From Lophium mytilinum (taxonomy: Eukaryota), in assembly GCA_010093605.1 (NCBI GenBank), contig MU004185.1, positions 331,334 through 395,333 of the forward strand: a stretch of DNA of 64,000 nucleotides, read 5' to 3'. Numbering within the stretch: position 1 is the first letter of the stretch; each line of letters opens with the position of its first letter. Position numbers and translations under genes: made by a program. The notes under the pieces were generated by a model. The model did not search any database. It was not told the origin of the DNA and was given only the letters and a program-made list of their open reading frames with translations. Shown here in pieces: positions 12,292 through 64,000 of this stretch.

Positions 12292-14603
12292 ATGGCTCAA
12301 GATCATGAGCTGGCGGCTTCGCAGTAAGTACTTTCGCTCCTCTATGCGCGTGAAGAGGTGGATTGATGTTTACGGACTTGCGCTGTTGTCGGAGTTTGAT
12401 CATGCATGGCTGGTTGCTGATTGTTTGCTAGGCTTCACCAAATCCTCACTACCGAGGGCAAGAAGCCTGAGCAGGATGCTATGGGCGCGCCTATGCCCGC
12501 TGGAATGAAAGATGTCCCGCTGGACGAGAAGAAGGGGATCTCGCCGCACCCGTCGCAGATTACCCTTGACCACGAGCATGACGGCCTCGAGGGCGAGCAT
12601 CCCTCCGAGGAAGAGAAGCGGACGCTGAGGCACATTGGCGACCCATTGCCCAAGGCTGCCTTCCTAGTCGCTATTGTCGAGCTCTGCGAACGTTTTACGT
12701 ACTACGGTATCCAGGGTCTGTTCCAGAACTATGTGCAGAGGCCGCTGGATGGCAGCTTGGGGAGAGGTGCGCTGGGCATGGGGCAGAAAGGTGCTACTGG
12801 ACTGGGAACGTTCTTCCAGTTCTGGTGTTATGGTATGTCATTTTTTTTTTCTTCTCGTATGCACAGGTCTGCTGCTGTTTGTGGTGCTTCAGTACACTTT
12901 TAGAGGTGTGAAAGAGGTAAAACCTCTTAGCTTTGGGTTATTAGGAAACCTGTTGAAGCACCACAAACAGCGGCAGACCTGTGTACTCATCAAGATCGGT
13001 CATTTGCAGTCGTGTGCACACCTGCTTGCCACTGCTTAGAGTGCTTCAACACATTTTCAGAAAAGGAAAAGACGTAGAACCTCCTAGCTTTGGGCTATCT
13101 GGAAACTTGACGAAGCACTCCAAGCAGTGGCAGACAGGTGTATCAATCTGGACAACCACGTCTAACAACACCACAGTCACTCCCATCCTTGGAGCCATCA
13201 TCGCCGACCAGTACCTCGGAAAATACAAAACAATCCTATACTTCTGCTTCGTCTACATCGTTGGCCTCCTGATTCTCACTCTCACGTCTCTTCCTATCGC
13301 GCTTCAGCATGGCGCAGGCCTGGGCGGCTTCATCGCCGCTATTATCATCATCGGTCTCGGCACTGGAGGAATCAAGTCCAATGTCGCCCCCCTCATTGCC
13401 GATCAATACAAGCGCCGTCAAATGGTCATCGGGACTGATCCTAAGAATGGCGAGCGCGTCATCATCGATCCGGCCATCACCATTCAGCGTATTTACATGA
13501 TCTTCTATCTGTGCATCAACATCGGCTCGCTCTCCCTTCTTGGGACGCCCTACATGGAGCGCAACATCGGTTTCTGGAGCGCCTACCTCCTCGGCCTGTG
13601 CATGTTCGTGTTTGGAACCGTGATTCTCATCTTGGGAAAGAAGGTGTATATTGTGCGGCCACCGCAGGGCTCCGTCGTTACCGATGCCTTCAAGTGTATC
13701 TGGATGATGTGCAAGGCCCGGAACATGAATGCGCCAAAGCCAACATACCAGGCTGCTATTGGCGGACGCTCGAATCTGCACTGGGATGACACTTTCGTTG
13801 AAGAAGTGAAGCGGGCGCTGTTGGCTTGCAAGGTTTTCGCATTCTACCCCATCTACTGGGTTGTGTACGGCCAGTTCTCGAACAACTTCGTTACTCAAGG
13901 TACGTCCGCTCCCTTTCCTCGCTCTCCGCGTTTCTTTTCTGACCCTCCCATAGCTGGTGAAATGCGCGGCCACGGCATCCCCAACGATCTCATGCCCAAC
14001 TTCGACCCCATCTCCATCGTCGTCTTCGTCCCCATCCTCGACATGTTCGTGTACCCCGCGATGCGCAAGGCTAAGATCCCCTTCCCGCCCATCAACCGCA
14101 TCACCCTGGGCTTCTGGATCGGCTCGCTCGCCATGGCCTACGCCGCCGTCATCCAGCACTACATCTACATCAGCGGGCCATGCTACGAGTCTCCACTCTG
14201 CGACGCCAGCGTCGTCGATGGCGTGGCGCAGGGAAACAACATCCACATCGCCGCGCAAACCGGCGCCTACATGCTCATCGGTATCTCCGAGATCTTCGCC
14301 TCGGTGACAGGGTTGGAGTACGCCTACACGAAAGCCCCGCCGAGCATGAAGTCGTTCGTGCAGTCTATGTACTTGTTCACCAACGCGTTTGGGTCGGCTA
14401 TCTCGGAGGCGCTGAACCCGGTGCTCTACGACCCTGCGATTTTGTGGATGTTTGTTGGCCTGGCTATTAGCAGTTTCATTACGGGTTGTATTATTTGGAC
14501 GCTGTTCCATCATTACAACAATATTGAGGATAATATGAACTTTGATAAGGATCTGGATGAGGATCCGGCGTTGGTGAAGGATACGGAGAAGTTGGCGGAG
14601 TAG
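12292..14603 (+). CDS. PTR2: POT/PTR family di/tri-peptide transporter
   Basis: ELCERFTYYG (ExxERFxYYG), GTGGIKSNVAPL, FYLCINIGS and YTKAPPSMKS motifs. Introns at 12324-12431, 12833-13176 and ~13900-13953. Confidence 0.95.
12861..13141 (+). repeat. Two tandem ~125-bp hairpin elements (30-31 bp stems) in PTR2 intron 2
   Basis: Arms 12861-12891/12954-12984 and 13018-13047/13112-13141 are reverse complements. The loops of the two copies are homologous (AACCTCYTAGCTTTGGGYTAT..GGAAAC). Confidence 0.85.
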
Positions 14604-15257
14604 ATGTCTTTCGAAGATAGAAAGGGGGTGGCGTGGAGCCGAGCCTTGAGGAAGGTACCTTAAGAGGTAGATGGAGAGGTGAGGCTGGCGGAAGGGATGG
14701 ATGGCCGAGTTCACTAGGCATGAATGAACAACAGATTCTCTACTACTAGGGCTGTCTTGGGGTAGTGATGTCTGGGCGAGACTGGTGGTTTGAATCGCTA
14801 TTTACTGACGGTCTAGAGTCATGACCTCTAGTCACTTGGAGCTCACGTGCGCCCCATGGGGTAGCCCCTGCGTCGGACTATAAAATCTTCTCGTCTTCTA
14901 GTGATTCTTGCTAAAAGGGGTGGACAATACTTTGGTAGAGGTTCAAATCCCGCTAGCTATCAAGCCATGGTTCTGGAATGTTCGGTGGGACTGGGCTGGG
15001 ATCAAAAACTTCACAACAACCATGCCATGGAGTGGCGTGCAAACGGTCCTCAGGTCCTTATCATGCCCGGGGGTTCGAAGTGTGGCGTGCAATCCACCTA
15101 ATCATCATCTCTTTCTTACGCGGATGACACCCACCTTCCTCCCAATTCCTCCAACCTCCACTCATCTCAGCATAAACTCGCCCTCCTCCCTTCCTCGCGC
15201 TGGTGAGCAGCCTGAGCTAGAAGAGGGGCTCACCATCATCACCTTATCGCTGCTCCT

Positions 15258-15965
15258 CCGCAAAACACCATTTCCCACCGGCACCTCCATGGTGCGTTGC
15301 ACTCCGCCGTGTTCACATCTTCTCCGCCCCCCTCAAGTCCATCGCAGGTTGCGTTTTCTGTTTCTGAACATCCAATTCCCACCACTTCATCATTTCCGGC
15401 GTTGTGTTGTTTTGAACATCCGGCTCCCGCCACTCCATGGTACACTCGCTGTGCCGTTTTGAACACCCAGATCCGCTCTTCGATGCCATGTATTTGCGGC
15501 GGTGTCATTGTCGAACAGCTCTCCCTCCCCACCACTTCATCGTTCCCTGCGTTATGGAGTTTTCAACGGCCGACTCCTCCACTCCATCAAAGCAAGATGT
15601 TTTGTGTTTTGAACGGCTCCCGCTCCCAGCACTCCATTCGGGTTGATAGAGGAGCTGTTTTGAACACCCGCCTCCCAACACCCCATGGAATGACAGGATA
15701 GTGGTTTTGAACACCCGAATCTACCACTCCATCATTCCCTGCGTTATGGTGTTTTGAACGCCCAGCTTCCTCTCAATTCCATGGTCCGTCGGGGCTGTGC
15801 TTTTCGAGAGACTTCCGCCACCACCCATTCATTGCTACAGAAGCCTATTTCGAACACCCAGCTCGCCCACCACTCCATCATTTCCGGAGTTATGAGATTT
15901 CGAACACCAAACTCCCCCGGCACTACATCGTTACCAGCATTGTGCTGATTTGACCTCCCGACACC
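15258..15965. repeat. Degenerate tandem array of ~13-15 units of 47-52 bp (TTTTGAAC ... CCACTCCAT ... variable segment)
   Basis: GAAC anchors end at 15369, 15417, 15464, 15516, 15567, 15614, 15665, 15712, 15759, ~15808, 15855, 15905 and ~15955. Unit lengths are mostly not multiples of 3, so the array is non-coding. Confidence 0.85.
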
Positions 15966-17680
15966 TCCCCTCTCCCTTTCTTCCCACCCTTTGTGCTCTC
16001 CGAAGATAACCCTGCCCTGCAGAAGAAAAGCAAAACGGAGGGAAGGTAGAGGTTTTATAGTCGAGCGAGAAGAAAGAAAATGCGGGAGGCACGTGAGGCA
16101 CATGTGCCACGTCATCGTCAGCAGACTTCGGAAAGGGGTGCGGAGAATGGGGAAGGTTTTAACGGTATCTTGTCGATGAAGGCAAGTCATGCGGACCAGC
16201 GCAAACCATCTGCTGAACCCGTGATCGAGCTTGGCGGGAGGGTATAAAGCCTTCGCCCGCGTTCTTGGGGTTGATTCTTCAAGGAAGGAGTTGGAGTGGG
16301 ACTTGGTCAACATTACAGCTAAAACAAATGTATGGTGAGAGTTGGAGCAAATCCGAGATAATGACAGTCCTGATGGACGGGAGTGTGTTTGTTCAACATC
16401 AACCTCAATTGAACTATGGGTGCGAGAGGTCTTCGAACCTGATACGAAGACAGATCCATGGGTTGGGTCTGGGGAGGGGAGTTGTTGAACTATCGCGAGG
16501 AAGGTTGAGAATGGAGCGTGGGAGGTTCTAGCGCTTTAGCAATGGTGACGCCAATCTTCGAGAGCTAATGCTTGAGATAAGTCCTTTAGAGCGCTGATAG
16601 AGGGCTTACTTGCTGCGGAGGTGCGTGTTATCACCATCCAACTCCACTCAATACCACAATCGACCCATCGTACACCCCATCGCTTACTCACACCCCTTCC
16701 ACCAGAAACCCACCAACCACCATTGTCGCTGTAAGATTCATCTGTTGATCCTCCCCTTCCACCCCATGCCTCGCCAACCTCATCGGAGTGTAATTCCAGA
16801 ACGCAGCCATCAGCTCTTCGACCCCTTCATTTGCGAACGAAAGCTACTGCAGCATTCTGGCTTCATGGTGAGCTGTTGCTTTCCCACTGCCATAAATTGT
16901 AGCGGAGTGTCCTTTCAAACCCTTCGAGAGGGCCACTGATTCCGAAGAAGAAAGTTCGCGGGGGCGGGAGGGAAGATTTATAGGGGATGTAGATTGGGAA
17001 CACGTGGGAGGAACGTGACTTTGCGGGAGCAGCTGCGGGTGCAATAGAGCACGTGGACTTCGTATTTCCCTAAAGTGGGTGGAGAAGGGGTCACAAGCAG
17101 GCGGTGCGAGGAGGTACAAAATCTCTTTCGGCGACGAGATTAGGAAAGTAGAGAAGGCGCTTTCGAGATTTTTTAAAGATAGTTGGTTAAGAGGTTGATG
17201 GAGTGAATCGGAACCGCTACACGACCAATGGTCTGGTGCTGGGTTGGATTGGAGTGTCTAATCTTGCACCGTTCCGGGCAATGTGGAGTAGTCTGGGGAG
17301 GCATCATCGACACTCTTGTTGATAAGTATTATTATCTCTGAGTATTAACTATCAGCATCTTGCCTTTCAAGTGTCCACCCATATCAGCTTAAGTCTTACA
17401 TCGCCGACTTAATATAATACCCATCACCTCCATTTCAATCGCTGTTCACTTCCGCGCCCAACACCACCACCAACTCCATGCACTAGGTCGAGTCCTGCGT
17501 TGCATCTCCACTACCACCACCTCTCCCTCCATGGACCTGAAAAGAGACAATTTTTCGCTATCCACCGCCGATCGCAACCTCCCTGGAGAAAATAGAAACT
17601 CGCGATTGAGACTTGGAACTTATAGAGAAAGGACAGCAAGCGCACGTGCGGACCACGTGAGCTATGAAAACTCGGAAGGG

Positions 17681-17808
17681 GCTGGCAAAATCTTAGTTCC
17701 TATCGCTATTTCGTGTCACATGCCTCACACGTGAGTTCTCAAACCCCATAGGCGCTGGAAAAAATCTTAGTTCCTATCGCTATTTCACGTCACATGCCTT
17801 GCACATGA
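17681..17808 (+). repeat. Direct repeat of ~54 bp (period ~73 bp)
   Basis: GCTGG..AAAATCTTAGTTCCTATCGCTATTTC..GTCACATGCCT..CAC.TGA occurs at 17681 and 17754. Confidence 0.85.
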
Positions 17809-18564
17809 CCGGGCTCTGGAGGAGGTATAAAGTCTTCGTCAATGTCGGGCTGAGAGAGGTAAAGATATCTCCTATGGGTGGCGCAAACCGAGGAGCGTTC
17901 GTGGAAATGGTGGAATCAGGTGTACACCAAGCAGCCAATGGTGTGCTGTCTTGGCTGGGGTGTTTGAAAAGAGTCAGAGGAAGAGCGCGATGCGTGTGGC
18001 CGTCCGTCGGTTGGTGGTAGGTCGCAAGACGGCGATGATCCCGATTCATGTTCGAGCTGCATCTTCCCATTATTTATCCTAAAGTTCGTGGCACACTAAC
18101 CCTCAAGATGCCGCAGACCATCGAACTTGAACGCTGTTCCTTGACATCACTAATTTTCGATGACATCCCCCGAACCTCCGCCCTCATCAGTATGGTCCCT
18201 GTAGCGTTTTTGTCGCCGCTTCACCTCCCGGCCCTCCATGTATCTCGTGCGGGCAAGTGTTACGACACCAACCATCACACGGTTTCTCCATGGGTTTGTC
18301 TCCTCCCACCAACACACAGCCATCGTTCGATGTCGTATCGAGTTTTGCCCTCCGCCCCGACCTCCCACCTCTGCACCTCGACAACCGGCGGCAGAAGATG
18401 TTTTATGCCCGCCCAGACCGGCCGGAAGATCGGGCACATCTCCATCTCACGTGTCCGTCACGAGATGCTTTCGCCCTTCGCTGACCTCAAACGCCGAACG
18501 TGCCTGCCCCAGGCTAGAAGACAGAAACCACGCGTTGTTACGCCATCGGAGTCTTTTGCTGACA

Positions 18565-18880
18565 AGAGTATCGGATTCAACGCTATAAGACGTTGGGTGC
18601 GGATGGCTGCGGCGTAAGCAGGCGGCGTCTTGGCCCCGAGAGGCGACATTTTGGTAAAAATGGTCAAAGAAGTATCGGATCGAATTGCGTGGAAGTTGAC
18701 TTGCTAGACATTGCGTGGATGAGAGCACCTTGTGTGGTTTGCTGGCATCTAGGTTACACTGAGGTATTTCTCTGGTACTTTTGGGTGTAAAAGTATCGGA
18801 TCGAACCGCGCAAAAATTGGTTTGGTAGATGTCGCATGAACGCGACCTCGCTGGCTGGCTTACTGACGTGCAGGCTTTTT
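18565..18880 (+). repeat. Three degenerate tandem units (~105-120 bp) starting AGTATCGGAT
   Basis: AGAGTATCGGATTCAA at ~18565, AAGTATCGGATCGAATTGCG at ~18670 and AAGTATCGGATCGAACCGCG at ~18791. Units 2 and 3 share further similarity. Confidence 0.6.
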
Positions 18881-19195
18881 AGATATGCGATTTCCTCCTT
18901 GGTTTTCGCATCGGTGTTGGTGTAGTAATGGTGCTAAAGTAGGGACTTACTAGGAAGTAGTGATGATGGAGAATTTGGCGATTGGACGTGCGGAGTTAAG
19001 ATCTAGAGGAAGTTGTTGAGAAGAGCGGGCTGGTTAGAGGCTAATAGAAACTTGTTATACAGCTAACTGCGTCAATGACTCTGTTTCGAGACTGCTCAGC
19101 GTTCACTGTTCGTTGGTATGTGGCTTGTCTTTGGATAGGACGAATTTGCCTCGGCATTCGTTGTTGGATGAAGCTAGCCTCCGTTTCTGTCAACC

Positions 19196-20227
19196 TTATT
19201 CTTTCTCTTCTTCGTCATCATCCACCCCGGGAAATCCAAGCTCCATCCTCTTCCTCGTCGTTTCTTCTTTCCACTTCCATAACGCCGGAAGTCTCTCGTT
19301 GTGTGGAAGACGCCCAAAGGTGTGGTTCGGAGTCTCCGGATTAAGCCCATGAAGTATGTGTGCGATATCCAAGCTGCCTTTTATCTTGCCATTCACCCTA
19401 AATCGGATTGTTACAATCCTCTCATGCAAGATCTTACCATAATCGGCAGTAGATGAGCCCATGCTGAGCAGATTCCAGATATCGGCGTCCAAATAATCTG
19501 CTAGCCACTCTGGCCGCAAGCTCTTAGTTTTTTTGGTCTCGTGCGGCCCGGCGGAGTGGGCATATTTGAAGTAATTACTATAAGGGTCGCGAAGCTCGTC
19601 TCGAGTGCCTTCTCCGGTCGGATAATCATTGTTGCCCACAAAATCGAGATCCAGCACCTTAATGCTGACCTCCCTATCCCTCGATGAGGAGGTCTGCCCC
19701 ACAGGTCCCCGCTTTAGAACATGCTCCAACAAGTAGTAAAAGCACCACATGATCACCGGTGGTCCCGTACAACCACTTTTCCAAGCGCTTCGTTTGTGTT
19801 CATCTTCAAGACCCATAGCGCGGAAGGTGACGTTAACGACATCAAGCTTGGTAGCGAGCACCGGTACGGAAAGCCAGGTTGGTAACAAGTCCCTCTCATT
19901 GGCGATCATGACGTCGAGTTCGTAGCGCAAAGAAAGCAAAGAAAGACGGCGGAGCGCTGCAGCGGTCTCATCCGCGAGCTGGTGGTTTGTAAGGGAGAGA
20001 GGGTAACTGTTTGACCTGTAGACGGATTTCTCAAGCCACACGTGGGATGGGCCGTAGGGCCAGGACATGAAGCCGGAATCCGGGGATCCGGATTCCCCGC
20101 TCGTCGCAGGTGTGCATCGAGTGGTCTCTGCAGAGGAGATAGTGGGCGGAGCAAGGCGAGCTGAAGATAGAACGAGTTCGATGATATTGTCGCGGAGCTC
20201 CTGGGGAATGGAGAGGAGGGATGGCAT
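19196..20227 (-). CDS. Hypothetical protein with N-terminal F-box-like motif
   Basis: Intronless 343-aa ORF. MPSLLSIPQELRDNIIELVL is followed by LSLTNHQLADET, the split F-box-like pattern of fungal orphan families. Confidence 0.8.
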   Translation of the reverse strand: MPSLLSIPQELRDNIIELVLSSARLAPPTISSAETTRCTPATSGESGSPDSGFMSWPYGPSHVWLEKSVYRSNSYPLSLTNHQLADETAAALRRLSLLSLRYELDVMIANERDLLPTWLSVPVLATKLDVVNVTFRAMGLEDEHKRSAWKSGCTGPPVIMWCFYYLLEHVLKRGPVGQTSSSRDREVSIKVLDLDFVGNNDYPTGEGTRDELRDPYSNYFKYAHSAGPHETKKTKSLRPEWLADYLDADIWNLLSMGSSTADYGKILHERIVTIRFRVNGKIKGSLDIAHILHGLNPETPNHTFGRLPHNERLPALWKWKEETTRKRMELGFPGVDDDEEEKE

Positions 20228-38336: not shown

Positions 38337-40209
38337 CAGCTTGGTGGTTGCTGATCTTGCCTATAGAACTCTTAGATGATTGCTTTGTGTTTATGATATC
38401 CCTTAATGCATCAGGCAATATAGAGCCTGAAACGGGCTCAGCCACGTGACCCAAATATATCCAGTCCAATTGTCCTTCGCGACTTTTACGATCTCTATGA
38501 AGAACGCTTCTCATGCTATATCAAGGACTTTGACGCGTTCGTAAAGAATGTTCAATTATGATTCACGCATTCTTTTAGAAATATCGCTGAGGAGACGCTT
38601 TCGTCACGTGAAAGTAGCTAAAAGTACTAGAAAATGAACTCAGCAGTCAGATTGACTGTCAGATGAACTGGGCAGCGAACTTCAGAAACGTAATCATGCC
38701 CAGTCTCACGCAAGAGAATCCGTATTGCTTTCATCGACGCGCGTAAAGTTGGCAAGGTGGTGATGGTGTGCAGTGGCGTCATAGCTAGCTTCAGGTTCCC
38801 GCATTCCAACGTCCGAGTCAACCACATCCCCTCTGTAATTTCCACAGCAACATCGTGAGACGGTCGCGCCTGTCCCGCCTCCCCGAGCCGTGTGCTATTT
38901 TGCTGTCAGCCGCGTCGCGATGCAGGGCCCGTCCTCGCTGGGGGGAACTGCGGTGATGTTCAGGGCATTCCGCCATGCCTCCGATCCACGCGGCACAGAC
39001 TCGCCTCCACATGCAGGCCCCTTGGCCGATCGGCGCGTGTACGGGATGGGAGTCAAACGGCTGCTTGCCCACACAGGGTTGGACGGCCGGCTGACATGGA
39101 TCATCCCGTGCTCTCCAGCCACATCATCGTCATCAGGCATCACGTTGGAGACGTCTTCCAACTTTTGCTTGGACCGCGAACGCCTGCTGCGAGGATTGCG
39201 GCAAGGTTACGAGCGATCGACGTGCATTATACTTTCTTATAGGCTGCAGATGCCTGTCTGGGAGTGCAGAGTGCAGCAGAAATGCAGTCCCCCGGCCCCG
39301 TGTGCCAGTATCCCCCTCCCTGGTGTTTGGGAGACCTCCTCCAGGCCCGCAGATCACTCTTCTTGGTGAGAGAACTGTTCTTTGCTCATCCGTTTCTTTT
39401 CTTGTCATGCGATTTAATCACTCCAATATTTCTTCTATCTGTTCATCATGCAGCGGCTCATCCAGAATGCTTGTGCTGCTGCTGCCAACTGCGCAAGAAC
39501 ACGGCACGGAACCTCTCCCGTCTCATCTTTCCCTACCCCGTAAGCGGTAGGAGGTCGGAGAAATAGAGTATCAAGCCTAGGCTCGATCTTCATGGCCTCG
39601 CCCCCAGCCATGAAGGCTGCAGGTGCAAGCGTATCGACGATTTGTAGGGATCATCCCCCCAAACCTGCCCAGCCACAGCTCCACAACCGTCCCACGATGC
39701 CGGAAGCTGTTCATGTCGCACCACAGCACCCCGGCGCGATACTCAAGCCCCGCTCGATGCTGGTGTTGTGACGCAATGCCCGCCAGAAGCGTAGAGGGCT
39801 CTCCAACTTCTGACCATCCAGACCGGGCAGCGACGCCTCTCGCACGACGCGACGGCGCCATGCCAGCCGCAAAACAAGTTTCCCATCCCTCCTTCGCCAT
39901 GGGCCCCAGACATTGAGGCGCGAGCTCCCCTGTCGCACACCATGCACCATCACTGGAGCTCTCCCGACTCTACGTCATTGAGAACGATGGCAGACAATTC
40001 CCTCTTTATGAGTACTTTCCCTGTGTAAATCAACTTCTCTCTATATACATATACGTCGCCAATTGACGTATACTTACATGCCCGCCAATTCCTCTCCTCC
40101 AAGCTACGCTTATTACTCATTCCCCCCAACCCCAAACAGAATATCTCCCATTGCCTCCAGGTCTAGAAGAAACACTCCCCAGACAGACCGCACATCACAT
40201 TCACACACA

Positions 40210-43200
40210 ATGCCCTCACCAGCAGCTGGAAAGGGCGGAGATGCTCCCCGAACTCCCACAAAACTAGGCCGTAAGCCTCAATCGAGTGCCACATCAAAGC
40301 TCGGCCAAGGCACAAAAACCCCACCTACACAGAAATCAGACTCCAAAGCACCGTCAACAGAAGACAAGCCTGATCTACCAGAGCGGCCGTCGGAAGACGA
40401 CGCGAAGGACAAGGCTGGTGATGCCGCAAAGACAGCGGAAGACACAAAGGACTCAGCCGAATCCGAAGCTGAGGACACCACAGGCAAAGTCTCGCAAAAG
40501 GGTGACCTAGAGGAGGCCGAGCCAAAACCAATTGACGACGACGAGGACGACACCATTCTCGGCGCCCAAGACGAAGCTGAGGAGACTGGCGACGACGCCA
40601 CCGAGAAGGCTGGCGACGAAGCCGAAGACACCGCCGAAGACACCGCCGACGACGCCACTGACACGGCAGGCGAGGCCGCAGATGGTGCACAAGATCAAGC
40701 CGAAGGCGGCCTGAAGAGTGCACGAGGACTTGCTGGCAAGGCATCGGGCTTGGCTGGTAAGGCGGCCAAAGATCCAGCAGGAGCTGCCAAGGAGGGCGCC
40801 GACGATGCTCAATCGACTGCTGGCGAAACCGCCGATGAGGCCCAATCGACCGTGGGCGAAACCACCGACGGTGCCGAGGATACCGCTGGCGAAGCCGCTG
40901 AAGGTGTTGAGGGCGCTGCGGACGAGGCCAAGGAGGGTGCCGAAGATACCGCAGGTGAGGCTAAGGAGGGCGCCGAAGAGACTGTCGGTGACGCTAAGGA
41001 AGGTGCCGAAGAGACTGTCGGCGAGCCTAAAGAGGGCGCCGAAGAGACCGTCGGTGATGCCAAGGAAGGTGCTGAAGATGCTACGGGCGAGGCGAAGGAA
41101 GGCGCTGAAGATGCTACGGGCGAGGCGAAGGAAGGCGCTGAAGATGCTACGGGCGAGGCGAAGGAAGGCGCTGAGGATGCTGCCGGCGAGGCCAAGGAGG
41201 GAGCTGAAGAGACCACCGGCCAAGAACTTCCCGAAACCCCCGATCTCTCTATCCTCAAGGGCCTCGAAGTTGATGACGAGGGCCTGATCAAGAATGCTGA
41301 TGGCAAGACCGTCGGTAGACTCGTGGAAGGTGACGCCGAAGACCTCGCTGGATACACCATTGGTGACGAAGGCGAGATCCTGGACGACGATGGTGACCTG
41401 GTCGGTCGCTGCGAAATCACCCCGGAACATGCAGAAGAACTCGCCAAGGAAGCCGAGGAGAAGGATGCCGCCCCCAAGATGCCCGGCCTCGATGTTCTCA
41501 AGGGTCTTACCGTCGACGCGACTGGCCAGATCCTGAACGAGGATGGTGACTTCGTTGGTATACTCGTAGAGGGCGACCCAGCCGACCTTCAAGGCAAGGA
41601 GTTTAACGAGAACGGCGAGATCCTTGACGATGATGGAAACGTCATCGGCCGTGCTGAACTCCACCCCGATGCCGCAGACCTGGTCGACCAGGATGGTGAC
41701 CTCCCCGAAGGTGGTGAAGATGCTGAAGGTGCCGACGGCGTTGCTGGTGAAGCCGGCGAAGCTGTCGATGGCGCCAAAGAGGGTGCCGAAGGTGCCGCTG
41801 AAGGCGCTGAGGAAGGTGTCGAAGGCGTCGAAGACGAACTTCCCGGTGTCGAAGCCCTCGAGGGCAAGGAAATCAACGAAGACGGCGAAATCCTCAACGA
41901 GGATGGCGAAGTCATTGGACAACTTGCTGAGGGCAACATCGACGACGTCAAGGGCCTCACCGTCAACGAGAAGGGTGAAGTCGTCGACTCCGAGGGCAAC
42001 GTTCTCGGAAAGGTCGAGCTCGCCGAGGGTGCTGCTGAGAAGCTCAAGGAAGCCGCCAGTGGTGCTCTTGATATCCGCATCCTCGAAGGACTCAAGGTCA
42101 ATAAGAAGGGCAAGGTCCTCGACGAGGAAGGTGAGGAAATTGGTGAACTCAAGGAGGGCGAGATCAAGGACTGCGCCGGCAAGACTGTCAATGAGAAGGG
42201 CGAGGTTGTCGACAAGGAGGGCAAGGTCCTCGGAAAGGTCGACATCGTTCCCGGCGAGGCTGCTTTCGAGGCCCAGAAGGCCCTCAAGGAGAGGCTTGGC
42301 GAGACTGAACCTCAAGAAGTCATCCCCGAGCTCGACATTCTCGAAGGCTTGAAGGTCAACAAGAAGGGACAAATCCTCAACGAAGATGGCGAGCCAATCG
42401 GAGAGCTCATCGAGGGTGACCTGGCTGCCTGCGCAGGAAAGAAGGTCAACGAAAAGGGTGAAGTCCTCGACAAGGACGGAAACGTCATTGGAAAGGTCAA
42501 GACTCTCCCCCAACAAGCCGAGGAGGCTGTCGAAGGCGCCGAGGACACCGCTGAGGGTGCCGAGGAGGGTGCCGAAGACACCGCCGAGGGCGCTGAAGAA
42601 GGCGTTGAAGGTCCTGAAGAAGGCGTTGAAGGTGCTGAAGAAGGCGCTGAAGGTGCCGAAGAAGGTGCCGAAGAAGGTGGACCCGAACTACCCCCTCTCT
42701 CGGTCCTCGAAGGCCTCACCGTCAACAAGGCCGGCAAGCTTGTCGACAGTAACGGCGTCATTGTTGGTGAGCTTGTGGAGGGCGACGCGAAGAAGCTATC
42801 CAAGTCTGGCATCACCGCCGACGCCGAGGGTCAGTTCTGGGACAACAAGGGACACGTCATCGGACGTGCCCAGACTGTTCCGACCGAAGAGGGTGAGGAG
42901 GAAGCACCATTCGCTGGTCTCGAAGGCCTCATCGTCGTCAAGGATGGTCTCGTCGAAGATGAGAATGGCAACACTGTCGGCAAGGTCGTCGAAGGTGATG
43001 CTAAGAAGCTCATCGGCCGTGCCGTGGACGAAGACGGAGACATCATCGACAAGAAGGGCTCCGTTGTTGGCCACGCCGAGCGCTATGAGGAGCCTGAGGA
43101 GGAAGTCGAGCCGGAGGCTGACCCGGAAGACCTATCCATTCTCGCCGGAAAGGTTGTCAACAAGCAGGGCAACGTTATCGGAGACGAGGGCGTGCCAATC

Positions 43201-45317
43201 GGTCGCCTAGTCGAGGGCAACGCGAAGGAGCTCGCGGGCAAGAAGTGTGACGAGAACGGCCAGATCTGGAACGACTCTGGCAAAGTCATTGGCCGCTGCG
43301 AGTTGATCCCTCTCGATGAGCGTGAGGCCAAGCCTGAGGGTATCTTCGCCGGCCTCGAAGGCCTCCGCGTCGTTCCTGACGGCAAGGTCGCTGATGAGGA
43401 TGACAACATTGTCGGTACCATCGTTGAGGGCAACCCCAAGCGTCTCATCGGTCTTGCTGTGGACGAGGATGGTGACATTCTCGACAAGTACGGCAACGTC
43501 AAGGGCCACGCCGAGCCTCTTGAGGAGGAAGAAGAAGTCCCTGATGACCTCTCGATCTTGGACGGCCTTACACTAAACAAGCAAGGCTTCCTTGTTGACT
43601 CTAACGGCATCCCAGTTGGACGCCTTGTCGAAGGTACTCTCGCTGACCTTGCTGGACGCAAGAGCGATGGTGAAGGTCTCATCCATAACGACACCGGAAA
43701 GGTGGTCGGCCGATGCGAGCTCATTCCCGAGAACGAGCGCGTCACCAAGAAGGAGGGTCCTTTCGCCGGTCTTGAAGGCCTCAGGGTAGTCAAGGATGGC
43801 TTTGTCGAGGATGATGATGGCAACCGTGTTGGTCAAATCACCGAGGGTGATCCCAAGAAGTTGGTTGGCAACGCCGTCGACGAGGACGGTGATATCATCG
43901 ACAAATACGGCAACGTCAAGGGCCACGCTGAGCCATGGGAAGAAGAGGCGCCTCAAGAGGTCGACCTTTCTGCCCTTGCTGGCTGCGTTGTCAACAAGGC
44001 TGGCAACGTCGTCGACTCCTCCGGTACCATCCTTGGTCGCGTCGCTGAGGGTGATCCATCCACCATGATCGGCAAGAAGGTCGATGGGAAGGGTCAGATC
44101 TGGGATAACGAAGGCAACGTCATTGGCCGCGCTGAGCTTGTCAAGGGAGCTCAGTCCGGACCTGAGGGACCTTTCGCCGGCTTCGACGGCAACACGGTCG
44201 CCAAAGACGGTACTGTCCAGACCCCAGACGGCACCATCATCGGACGTGTCATTGAAGGCGATGTCAAGAGACTTGTCGGCCACAAGGTCGATGAGGATGG
44301 CGACATCAACGACAAGAACGGCAACGTCATTGGTAAGGCTGAACGCTGGGAGCCAGAAGAGAAGGAACGTAAGATCAACCCCATGTCTGGCATGCACGTC
44401 AACAAGGAGGGTGAAGTCCGCAACGAGAGTGGTGATATCGTCGGCAGACTCACCGCTGGCGATCTCGGTCACTGTGCGGGTCTTGAGATTGATGACAACG
44501 GCTATGTCATCGACAACGATGGCAACAAGGTCGGCGAAGTCACGCTCCTGGAGAACATCCAGGAAGAGGAGGAAGAGACCGATGAGGACAGGAAGAGGAA
44601 GGAAGATGCCGAGTTGGCCGACAAGATGGCGACCATTTGCCAGCAGACACTCGAGCGAATCCAACCCGTCTGCAAGCAAATCACAGAGGTATGTCTTCCT
44701 ATCATCTCCCTTTCGCGATTTTTACTAACACTCTCTAGTACATCGAAGCAGCCGACCGTACCCCTCGTGATGAGCTCGACGAAGAGGAACTTGTCAACAA
44801 CGTCAAGCCCCTCATCGAAGAAGGCGGTCGTATCCTCAACGAATGCAACGGCTCCCTTCGTGGCCTCGATCCCGATGGCCACATTGCTGCGCAAGCGAAG
44901 GGCCGCGCCGGCACCAAGGAGGCTACACCCGAAGAGTACCGCCTGGCGGATTGCCTCAAGGAGCTCACTGGCACTGTCGTCACTTGCATCGACAACGCGA
45001 AGAAGAAGATCTCCGACATGCCGCATGCCAAGAAGAAGCTCAACCCGCTCTGGGGCCTGCTCACGCAGCCGCTCTTCCAGATCATCGCAGCTGTGGGCTT
45101 GTTGCTCGCAGGTGTGTTGGGCCTGGTTGGACAGCTACTCAGCGCCCTGGGTCTCGGTGGCCTGGTCAACGGCCTGTTGGGTGGCTTGGGCATTGACAAA
45201 TTGCTTGGCGGTCTTGGTCTTGGAAGCATCACTGGTGGTGGCAAGGACAAGAAGAAGAAGGGTGGTGCCGGAGGACTGCCGATCATTGGCGGTCTGCTCG
45301 GCGGTGGTGGGAAGTAA
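40210..45317 (+). CDS. Large acidic DUF3659 repeat / LEA-like protein
   Basis: Many LxGLxVxxxGxVxDxxGxxVGRLVEGD repeats. Intron 44689-44738 leads to the conserved C-terminus (MPHAKKKLNPLWGLL...QIIAAVGLLLAGVLGLVG). Confidence 0.92.
40900..41220 (+). repeat. 33-bp coding tandem repeats (11-aa GEAKEGAEDAT LEA-like units)
   Basis: Near-perfect GAAGGCGCTGAAGATGCTACGGGCGAGGCGAAG copies at ~41065-41180, flanked by variant units. Confidence 0.85.
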
Positions 45318-46033
45318 ATGGCTTCCGGTTTCTTAGGTTGAATTTGTAAGATTTAAGAGGGAAAGTACAAGCGTAAAGCTTCGCGCGTGGGGATGAAGGG
45401 GATGTTTCTTCCACAAAAGCAAGTTTAGTGCTTGATGTATTATGGTATGGGTTGCGTCCGGTATGATATGAGCAAATGACTTTTTCGCCTGTCAGCGTTT
45501 CTTTTGTACTTCATTTGGGTTTTGGATGGGTTGGATTAGGGTTTGTTCTGTATATTATTTACGATAGTAATAGTATTGCATCTTACCTCATATGATTTTC
45601 AACCTTGGTGACGTGACACTGAAAAGATGTATAGTCATTCTGTCTCACTTCGATCTTTTTTCTTTCTTTTTTTCAGCCTTTATCACTTCCTTATCCCATT
45701 CCCCGCTTTCCCACAGCGTTCCAAACTATTCCACCCCCCTCTAAACTTAAACCAGCCTAACGCTCCACTCGCTTCTATCAATAGCCGAAGCTATCAGCTG
45801 ACAGCGCGGCCGCGCGCGTCGCGCTACGTCTAGAACCAGCTCGATCGACGCTTCTCCGGGCCGCGATGAATGCTCGCTGGCGGGGTAAGAGCTTCTTTTC
45901 ATCCCGATTGCTACCCGCGACCTCCTTCTTTCTCTTCAACCCAACACCAAGCCTTTGCAACACTCAGAAACACATTCATCCACCGCACAACATACCACCC
46001 AATCCTAACCCCACTTCGATCAGCATACTCACA

Positions 46034-61445: not shown

Positions 61446-64000
61446 ATTATTAAAACTAGTAAGGGTTCTATTAATAGTATAGACGCTAACTAGTTTACTA
61501 TATAATTCTACTAAAGTATATAGAACTATAGCTATATAGTCTTCTCTTTCTTAGTATAATCTAAGGGGAATTAAATCTATATAACCTAATTTTAATAGGT
61601 TATAAGCCTGGCTTAGCTAAGTATTACCTAATATCTATATAATAATATACTAAAAATATATAGGAGACCTATAATAGTTAACTACTACCCTTCTATTACG
61701 CAACCTCCTATATAATTTAACTATAGAATTAAATAGGTTAATCTATATTTAGAAATCTAGACTAGGTCTAGATACTAAAAAATATTAAAACTTTAGTATA
61801 ATATCTAGCTAAACCTATCTAGACCTATACTAACTATAGTACTACTCTATCTAAGCTATCTATATATAATATACTCCGGTAACCCCTTATATCTAGAATA
61901 AATATCTAGATCTAGGCCCTTATATACTCGGTTTAATTAAGTAATAATAAAGTAAGTACCCGCTATTATAAAATAATATTTAAAATACTTAAAGGGAAGA
62001 AAATCCTCTTTATAATAAGTTTAACTTACTCTCTCTATCTACCTTTATATATTTAAAAGATATATAACCTTTAATCTTATCTACTAAAGCCTACCTAGAA
62101 AGAAGTCTATTATATACTAAATTAAAACAACTTCTAATACCTAGCTAAGAACCTCTTAGTTAGTGCCTTTAAGCTATACGCTAAAAGACCTTAAGATATT
62201 AGACTATTAGATAAGCAGGACGCCTATTTTAAAATTATAGCTAGCACTAATAAAGATTACATTAATAATAATATATTAGATACTACTATTATCTTAAATT
62301 ACTCTATAAATAATACTTTTCTATTAAGTATTAATAGCCGTAATCTATAGGGACTATTAGCATAGTTAAGACCTAGACTAAGGCCTAAAGTAACTATAGA
62401 AGCTATCTTATCTTAATTAGAAACGCTAAGTATATCTTCTATATCTATATAGTAGACTTATATATTACTCTATATAGAAATACTACTCTATTAATACTCT
62501 CTAGCTCTAATTATAATTAGATTCTTACTAGAATTATTATCTAGGTTATTCTTATCTAAGCTAGAACTAACTTCTTTATCTTCTTTATTCTCTAGATTAG
62601 AACTAATTACCCTAAGACGCTATGCCGGTTAAGATAGGCAAAGCGTTGCTAGCTTAGATTAAGAAACTTAACTTATTAACTAGCTAGATTTAGTAGAATT
62701 GGGAAATAATAGCATAGCTATAAATAAACGGTTTTAGCAATCTTCTAGTAGAGGGATAGAATTAGATAGCACTAATAGCTTCTCTAGATTCTTAAATAGT
62801 AATAATAGTTACTATAGACACCCCCGTAGTAGAATAGAAAGCTAGCGGATCTACTTAACCTTTAAATTTAGGTACTATAATAGTAGTAGACGCTAGATTA
62901 ATTGCAAGATAGAAAGATAAGATAGAGAAATATAAGGAAAAGCTAAATAAATAGCTTAACTATTAGAACTAAGTAACATCTATAATTATAACTTAATGCG
63001 GGTTTAATATATAATATATAATAGATAATATTAAATAAGTAGTACTACTACTTAACGCCCTATACCTCTACTTCTAAGATATAGGCTATAGAATAATCTA
63101 TTAGTATTAACTTAACTATAGTAATATATTATTTAATAATTATATAAGTATAGAAGACTTTATAGATAAGCTCTAAGAAGTAAATTAAGACCTTACTAAT
63201 ATTAATCTAACCTGCAAATATAGTAAAGTACACTTAATTAATAACTTCTTTAATAGACTTAGAACTAACTACTAAATATTAGCTAACCTCTTCTAAACTT
63301 AAAATCTAACTATTCCTATAAGAGATGCAGCTAGTATTATTATAAGACTAGCTTTAAACTTTAGCTCTACTATTATAGTAATATAATGTTACAAGACTTC
63401 TCTTAAAGTAGATAAAGAATATAAAAAAGCTATAATAGCTACGTAAGCTAAAGGGAAATTATATAGTACTAGAAATAGAAAAGAAAACTATACTTATAAT
63501 AAGTATTATACTTATTATAAAAAGAAGGCCTAGTATAACGCTTCTATCTACTAGAAACTTTATCTATATCTAGAAAAGGAGTTTAAAGAAAAGAAGGTGG
63601 CTAAGAGAAAGGTAAAATAGAAGAAGAAGGCTAATAATTCTAAGGAATCTAGCTTAAAGCGCTAGAAAATAGACACTATTAAGAAATATAGCGCTAACCT
63701 AGTAGTCTTTTCTACTAATTTTAAATTTCTAGAAGGAACTAACTACATTATCTATATAGTAAATACGTCTGCTATATCTAATAACGTCTAGCTAATTAAT
63801 ACGGGTTGTTTAACTTACTATTGCAGTATCTAAAAAGACTTTATTAAATCTATAATAAAGCTATATTAAGGCCCTAGAATAGAAGAAATAGAAGGAACTA
63901 TTATCTAACTAACTAAAATAGAAATAGTTTAGCTAGAATGCAACTATAAGGAATAGTAGGTTCTTTTCTATCTTACTAATATATTATATACTCCCGGCTT
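61446..64000 (+). mobile_element. RIP-inactivated Ty1/copia LTR retrotransposon (5' LTR, PBS, gag, protease), running off the window end
   Basis: Extreme TpA excess and CpA/TpG depletion. TA-GGTTATAAGCC at 61596-61608 is a RIPped CA-GGTTATGAGCC (LTR end + copia-type PBS). Reversing RIP changes gives a zinc knuckle H...CWKLHP at ~63500-63570, protease WLIDTGCSTH at ~63785 and LYTPG at the window end. The LTR start is approximate. Confidence 0.85.

Follow-up and report, generated by a model that had tools for sequence, protein, structure and literature searches.

Positions 15362-15947 of the 64-kb stretch of fungal DNA analyzed here (hereafter the window) hold an old, degenerate tandem repeat of the minisatellite type, which is composed of ~49-bp units and lies in a transcribed non-coding spacer behind a PTR2 peptide transporter gene. 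We tentatively interpret this object, at a probability of about 0.4, as a minisatellite-derived array of bipartite protein-binding modules that may act either on DNA or on the transcript.

Architecture and extent of the array

The core of the array comprises 12 solid units that are contiguous, arranged head to tail and all in the same orientation. Read on the + strand, each unit starts with the octamer TTTYGAAC (motif 1), which is followed by a C-rich linker of 11-16 nt, the nonamer CCAYTCCAT (motif 2) and a variable segment of 18-20 nt. The units, termed u1 to u12, were delimited by anchoring on the recurring octamer in addition to a profile. They start at 15362, 15410, 15457, 15509, 15560, 15607, 15658, 15705, 15752, 15802, 15848 and 15898, with respective lengths of 48, 47, 52, 51, 47, 51, 47, 47, 50, 46, 50 and 50 bp. 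The array and its edges are as follows.

15362..15947, + strand, core array of 12 units (nhmmer, unit table, motif counts and two-unit pattern)
15262..15361, + strand, two very degenerate left-edge units (recognized by eye, with weak local profile matches)
15948..15997, + strand, degenerate 13th unit at the right edge, marginal (nhmmer E 1.5 over the whole window and E 0.018 locally)

An nhmmer search of the whole 64 kb with the unit profile recovered all 12 units, with E values from 1e-8 to 4e-3, and found no comparable unit beyond the array in the window, the sole other rows having E values of 4.4 and 8.9. Motif counts gave a similar picture: of the matches in the window, eight of nine to TTTYGAAC and five of eight to CACTCCAT fall within the array, and a strict two-unit pattern has three matches there, whereas 100 shuffles yielded none. 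Tandem Repeats Finder, run at a minimum score of 30, did not report the array. The two left-edge units have kept CACCTCCAT and TCCAT remnants, with motif 1 nearly gone; the local profile matches there are 15285-15301 (E 1.7) and 15331-15356 (E 0.52), and the whole-window search returned none. Thirteen to 15 units of 47-52 bp, as the earlier note had counted them, is thus a fair description of 12 solid units of 46-52 bp with two to three degenerate ones at the edges, and the arrangement of two motifs, C-rich linker and variable segment is as it had been described.

Genomic setting and RNA coverage

The array starts 760 bp downstream of the stop codon of the PTR2 gene, in a spacer that is several kilobases long. 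The features of this region are listed below.

12957..14603, + strand, last exon of a PTR2/POT peptide transporter, with one short in-frame intron (Pfam PF00854, E 2.9e-82)
14604..16990, + strand, non-coding stretch from the PTR2 stop codon to the end of the RNA contig, containing the array (RNA contig, ORF check)
14879..14885, + strand, inward-directed TATAAAA on the left side of the array, 276 bp 3' of the PTR2 stop codon, candidate promoter element (pattern match)
16053..16059, - strand, inward-directed TATAAAA on the right side of the array, candidate promoter element (pattern match)
16621..16705, + strand, spliceosomal intron of 85 nt, GTGCGT...CAG, ~670 bp downstream of the array (joint 16618/16704 of the contig from run X3; GT..AG, cut +2)

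The PTR2 protein is identical to a PTR2-domain protein of Mytilinidion resinicola at 443 of 475 aligned positions, and at ~97% outside the read-through intron; an 18-residue gap in the alignment marks the place where translation reads through that intron. The DNA therefore belongs to a fungus closely related to M. resinicola (Dothideomycetes). Downstream of the stop codon, the stretch 14604-16990 has no credible ORF: after splicing, no ATG ORF is longer than one of 146 aa, which is of low complexity, and no ORF spans the splice junction. A 161-aa frame that passes through the array shares words with 52 candidate proteins, none of which reaches E <= 0.001, in agreement with the earlier description of the array as non-coding.

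The wider neighborhood is that of ordinary fungal genes. A Pfam domain scan covered 33 ORFs, namely eight in addition to 25 of the 47 ORFs of at least 170 aa, the omitted ones overlapping or lying antisense to those scanned. Among these 33 ORFs, we found no Nop, Cas, transposase, reverse-transcriptase or other mobile-element domain, although short or heavily spliced genes may escape such a scan; no cas or Nop-domain gene had been noticed nearby before either. The inward-facing TATA boxes on both sides of the array are present as claimed, and the whole window contains 11 TATAAAA sites on its two strands. A suspected paralogy between 14600-17100 and 17100-20000, which carry two similar TATAAAG promoter-like stretches, was rejected, as BLAST returned nothing and only the TATA surroundings are common in an alignment.

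Three public sequencing runs cover the stretch; two of them are DNA, from which the window itself may derive, and X3 was classed as RNA by guess. Its contig of 4067 nt aligns to 14000-16618 and 16704-16990 with no differences. X3 behaves as RNA because its contig skips 85 nt with GT..AG ends, whereas the DNA contig from run X2 runs unspliced through the same intron. The coverage of X3 begins inside the PTR2 coding region and extends over the array without a break. The array region is present in RNA. The contigs, which carry no strand over the array, show no transcript ends and do not distinguish one transcript from several, are compatible with a long 3' tail of PTR2, with an independent non-coding transcript of the + strand and with an antisense RNA. 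All runs are identical to the window wherever they cover it, and probably derive from the same strain. Over parts of 16990-17344, the cover of X3 is little or absent.

Age and uneven conservation of the units

The highest identity between any two units is 0.77, and the mean column identity is 0.54. Lag analysis revealed no clear higher-order period, the best mean being 0.665 at lag 7 (five pairs). As no pair of units exceeds 77% identity and no higher-order period exists, the array must be old and has long gone without homogenization. It shares with degenerate minisatellites of 10-100 bp unit length the head-to-tail arrangement in one orientation, the period of 46-52 bp, a copy number of at least 12, the non-coding nature and the decayed edges. 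Typical variable minisatellites consist of near-identical units; by contrast, the units here are old and not homogenized, with two short blocks kept clearly better than the rest.

The four parts of the unit have diverged to very different extents. Mismatch to the unit consensus is low in motif 1 (9%) and motif 2 (14%) compared to the linker (36%) and the variable part (49%). Mean pairwise identity follows the same order, with 0.84, 0.77, 0.53 and 0.51, respectively, where shuffles give about 0.45-0.49. The variable part is close to random in sequence, yet its length is held at 18-20 nt. In u5, u6, u7 and u9, both cores are kept even though the variable part is randomized.

Decay at a uniform rate was simulated 2000 times on a UPGMA tree and on a star tree of the units. 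In the motif-anchored alignment, none of the 2000 simulations reached the observed column variance, and at most one reached the best 8-column window. As such an alignment favors the motifs, the real units and 600 simulated sets with indels were realigned alike with MAFFT. In this unanchored test, column variance (z 3.1; 1/600) and the best 8-column window (z 3.1; 0/600) still stood out, whereas two further measures fell short of significance, namely the 18-column window of lowest conservation (equally low in 7.7% of simulations) and the count of columns that are well kept (8.5%); these values pertain to paralogous units of one array, which was itself picked from very many windows. The earlier claim that the motifs are kept while the spacers differ therefore stands insofar as uniform decay is rejected, but the rejection is only moderate (z ~3) once alignment bias is removed. 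The better preservation of the cores, above all of TTTYGAAC, is thus real but moderate.

Relatedness of the variable segments

Ungapped comparison revealed that u1, u3, u4, u8, u11 and u12 share one type of variable segment. Among the 66 pairs of segments, 10 reach the 99.9th percentile of shuffled spacers, and together they define one family. The closest pair, u4 and u8, is identical at 17 of 19 positions. A weaker likeness links u6 with u7 and u2 with u12, and the remaining pairs lie at the shuffled mean. The segment previously seen to recur about five times corresponds to this family: its CATYRTTYCC..GTTRTG type is found in u1, u4, u8, u11 and u12, and more weakly in u3.

Since half of the variable segments are still recognizably homologous, it was the whole ~49-bp unit that was duplicated. 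The variable part is accordingly the fastest-drifting portion of the unit, and not a set of acquired spacers. When compared to the rest of the window, the variable segments gave a single match of 13/14, against zero to two per replicate in 20 shuffled sets.

A candidate cluster of bipartite binding sites

The earlier interpretation is partly supported: a protein-binding scaffold, one of the roles it suggested, is the best functional reading of the array, given cores that are preserved beyond uniform decay and the RNA contig that runs over the array. Each unit would represent a putative bipartite binding site for one protein or a pair of proteins. Selection would keep about a dozen such sites at ~49 bp spacing, while the intervening sequence drifts at constant length, and the array as a whole would form a homotypic binding-site cluster. 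Acting on DNA, the cluster might serve as an upstream element of the TATA-bearing promoter region at about 16050-16250. Acting on RNA, it might offer a series of protein-binding modules within a + strand transcript, either a long non-coding RNA or a long PTR2 3' tail, comparable to the motif clusters of meiRNA.

Comparable motif clusters in RNA include the A-repeat of Xist and the CU-rich repeats of the 15-lipoxygenase 3' UTR. A fungal example comes from fission yeast, where meiRNA and meiotic mRNAs bind Mmi1 through a cluster of U(U/C)AAAC motifs (DSR; PMC3352096, PMC4077057). DSR function needs at least six copies of the motif (PMC3352096), so that copy number itself is a functional feature. 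DSR and the present array have in common many copies of a short conserved motif, unconstrained sequence in between and a location in a transcribed non-coding region. They differ in that the motif of the array is bipartite and, as it descends from a tandem repeat, regularly spaced. A search of 15362-15947 on both strands revealed no DSR hexamer, neither core nor augmenting; the analogy is one of mechanism only.

None of several fungal transcription-factor and RNA-binding motifs considered fits either core. The strict two-unit pattern has no match in prokaryote genomes and none in viral contigs, in collections that hold few or no fungi. One locus on a metagenome contig does match it; this locus is AT-rich and has neither an array nor any similarity to the window, and was rejected as a chance match.

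If sister species turn out to share the conserved cores, a tandem repeat would have turned into about a dozen regularly spaced bipartite binding sites; if they do not, the array would be an ordinary decaying minisatellite. In the former case, such a cluster would sit in a fungal non-coding transcript beside a nutrient transporter gene. To our knowledge, filamentous fungi offer few examples of regulatory or scaffold RNAs that are built from repeats.

Neutral decay or a mobile-element origin as possible alternatives

Nearly as likely as a cluster of binding modules is a functionless relic, that is, an ancient minisatellite in neutral decay within a long spacer between genes. Chance, ascertainment (an array is noticed only if a block survives) or a neutral bias, for instance through short conversion tracts, would then account for the better preservation of the cores, and read-through or pervasive transcription for the presence of the array in RNA. 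Such a history agrees with the age of the units, none of which is recent (maximum identity 0.77), and with an unanchored conservation test that yields a z of only ~3 and leaves two of its four measures without significance. It also agrees with an array that has no consensus structure, known RNA family or recognizable factor motif, and that occurs at one locus only across the window and the metagenome, prokaryote and viral collections, which contain few or no fungi. Moreover, the sequenced sources, being identical and probably of the same strain, give no sign of a regulated or variable copy number. What neutral decay explains poorly is the block of eight columns at a mean pairwise identity of 0.84, which was reached by none of 600 and at most one of 2000 uniform-rate simulations, together with the survival of both cores in u5, u6, u7 and u9 beside a randomized variable part, and the constant length of that part.

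A much less probable origin is a mobile element with short tandem sub-repeats, foldback- or MITE-like, which would have inserted behind PTR2 and since decayed. The features that point in this direction lie in the same spacer as the array, the first of them being the following.

15006..15036, - strand, possible inverted single unit (motif 2, 18-nt segment and TTTT start), marginal, ~325 bp upstream of the array

This candidate forms an inverted repeat of 33 nt (I1) with unit 2, to which it is 76% complementary, and a rotated unit profile matches it at E 0.015 and 7.2 bits in a search of 2.2 kb. It includes a minus-strand match to CACTCCAT at 15027, and another such match lies in the same spacer at 17198. 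In total, four inverted pairs were found, of 16-33 nt at 74-88%. On the other hand, long terminal inverted repeats that would bracket the array are lacking, no second copy occurs in the 64 kb, and none of the 33 scanned ORFs carries a transposase, a reverse transcriptase or another mobile-element domain.

Comparison with TFIIIC-binding sites

We consider it improbable that the array is a row of minus-strand B-boxes bound by TFIIIC that acts as an insulator or chromosome-organizing site. The loose 9-mer GTTCRANNC is indeed found on the minus strand of six of the 12 units, and this much of the earlier B-box suggestion holds. TFIIIC sites without Pol III exist in yeasts, where they act as boundaries (PMC3395662). 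The array resembles these ETC or chromosome-organizing-clamp sites in its intergenic position and in a GTTCRA core that most units carry on one strand. When compared to the full 11-nt B-box consensus GGTTCGANTCC (PMC3395662), which includes a critical internal C, however, the units reach at best 5-7 of the 10 specified positions, with the flanking GG and TCC missing. Of 5000 random 52-nt windows drawn from this sequence, 56% reach a score of 6 or more and 14% one of 7 or more; the full B-box is thus matched no better in the array than at random.

Binding of TFIIIC would also leave motif 2 unexplained. The likeness of motif 2 to an A-box is at background level, and a mini tRNA-like unit of A-box and B-box on the minus strand was rejected at the same level. 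ARAGORN detected no tRNA gene in the window, and a search of 14500-16700 against Rfam at E up to 10 returned three unrelated weak rows, with neither a tRNA nor a known RNA family among them; a tRNA gene or tRNA-derived SINE was rejected on these grounds.

Comparison with guide arrays and snoRNA clusters

Even less likely is a polycistronic precursor of small RNAs, of ~48 nt or as ~20-nt guides, with the cores as constant handles, in analogy to CRISPR and TIGR arrays or to clustered snoRNAs. It is equally improbable that the array is cut into unit-length RNAs of ~48 nt in which the cores would be handles for protein and the segment of 18-20 nt a specificity or guide element, independently of Cas and Nop proteins; if this were true, the array would be a fungal counterpart of prokaryotic guide arrays or of clustered snoRNAs. 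A small-RNA precursor would be in keeping with the RNA contig over the array, the alternation of constant blocks with variable segments of fixed length, the hairpins that some of these segments form on the + strand only, and the inward TATA boxes, which could give convergent transcripts. Half of the variable segments are paralogous, however, and their matches to the rest of the window do not exceed chance expectation.

CRISPR direct repeats are near-identical and about 25-36 nt long (size from PMC12045711). A CRISPR array was rejected, since the conserved blocks here have only 8 and 9 nt, six of the 12 variable segments are related to one another, no Cas domain occurs in the 33 ORFs, and the sequence is fungal nuclear DNA. 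TIGR arrays consist of two repeats of 8-12 nt and spacers of 9 nt (up to 12 nt) in a 36-nt unit (PMC12045711). Each of the two repeats opens with UG and closes with CCA; they resemble boxes C and D and covary, and a Tas gene with a Nop domain lies adjacent. The hosts are phages, archaeal viruses and parasitic bacteria. The present array shares with them two distinct blocks of 8 and 9 nt that alternate with two intervening segments in a unit repeated 5-15 times, a resemblance of size only. Compared to TIGR, it has a low-complexity C-rich linker of 11-16 nt in place of one spacer, a half-paralogous segment of 18-20 nt in place of the other, a unit of 46-52 nt and a fungal host. Of the features that define TIGR, the 9-nt dual spacers and the 36-nt unit are absent here, no Nop gene occurs among the 33 ORFs scanned, and inspection of the + strand found the UG...CCA form in neither TTTYGAAC nor CCAYTCCAT.

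Clustered box C/D snoRNAs fare no better. In such a cluster, every unit would carry both a C box (RUGAUGA) and a D box (CUGA). The array contains a single RTGATGA (minus strand) and a single CTGA (plus strand) in total, on opposite strands, and the sole Rfam snoRNA row scores 14.7 bits against a gathering score of 45. Altogether, the CRISPR/TIGR-like guide precursor proposed by the earlier note is not supported, given the diverged copies among the variable segments (6/12), the short blocks, a geometry other than that of TIGR, the lack of a Nop or Cas gene among the scanned neighbors and a fungal host with spliceosomal introns. This framing, which is the source of the striking look of the array, fails whether or not the cores are conserved elsewhere.

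Folding of the units

The + strand of the array displays a strand-specific tendency toward predicted hairpins rather than a demonstrated structure. The summed minimum free energy of motif 2 with the variable part is -66.1 kcal/mol on this strand, compared to -43.3 ± 6.7 kcal/mol for spacer shuffles, none of 300 being as low. This excess is weakened because the units are related by descent and hence not independent; it becomes marginal when the units are grouped by lineage (arithmetic on z-scores). Folded in its entirety, the array does not stand out from its shuffles (z -0.67), 28 of 100 of which do equally well, and RNAalifold on the units gave no common pairs.

On the minus strand, which has no excess of hairpins, only u12 stands out. 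The three hairpins named previously all exist on the + strand, in u2 (-8.5 kcal/mol, 1% of shuffles as good), u5 (-4.3 kcal/mol, 8%) and u4 with motif 2 (-7.2 kcal/mol, 4%), but only two to three of the 12 units are individually unusual. The most stable relative to their shuffles are u2 and u9, for each of which ~1% of shuffles fold as well, with u5 and u12 being borderline.

Transcription and promoter-like stretches around the array

Just 3' of the array of dual-motif units, RNA is found on the + strand within 16260-16990, which is spliced and apparently non-coding. No ORF crossing the splice junction was found, and the longest ATG ORFs near the intron encode 57-67 aa.

Spliced RNA and promoter-like stretches
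16621-16705 (+), intron, 85 nt, GT..AG
16085-16115 and 16243-16250, promoter-like stretch 1
17640-17660 and 17826-17833, promoter-like stretch 2

The two promoter-like stretches both possess CACGTG-type boxes, and their TATA surroundings, GGTATAAAG(C/T)CTTCG, are near-identical. Paralogy of the two was rejected, as BLAST gave no match and alignment revealed the TATA region alone in common.

Motif copies and tRNA-like stretches outside the array

In the entire window, only three copies of CACTCCAT lie outside the array, two of which are located within 1.3 kb of it. An isolated CACTCCAT sits at 17198-17205 (-), in the same non-coding spacer behind the PTR2 stop codon as the array itself. Upstream of the array, two short + strand stretches (14925-14960 and 15027-15080) look similar to the D-arm and T-arm of tRNAs; the likeness consists of one GGTTCAAATCC-like stretch and one GGGTTCGAAG stretch. 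Neither ARAGORN nor Rfam called a tRNA at these positions; the stretches may represent chance similarity, or debris related to the possible single inverted unit upstream of the array.

Distal features of the window

40012-45333 (+), open frame, very long, 1774 aa
61303-61418, tandem repeat, 18-bp period, 6.4 copies, 68% matches, bordering the AT-rich block

The long frame harbors 14 DUF3659 repeats, together with numerous tandem repeats within the coding sequence (periods 33, 66 and 99 bp), and looks like a gene for a repeat-rich fungal protein. At the window end (61600-64000), the GC content falls abruptly to ~26%, and short AT-rich tandem repeats are numerous; this block resembles the AT-rich, repeat-mutated blocks known from Dothideomycete genomes.
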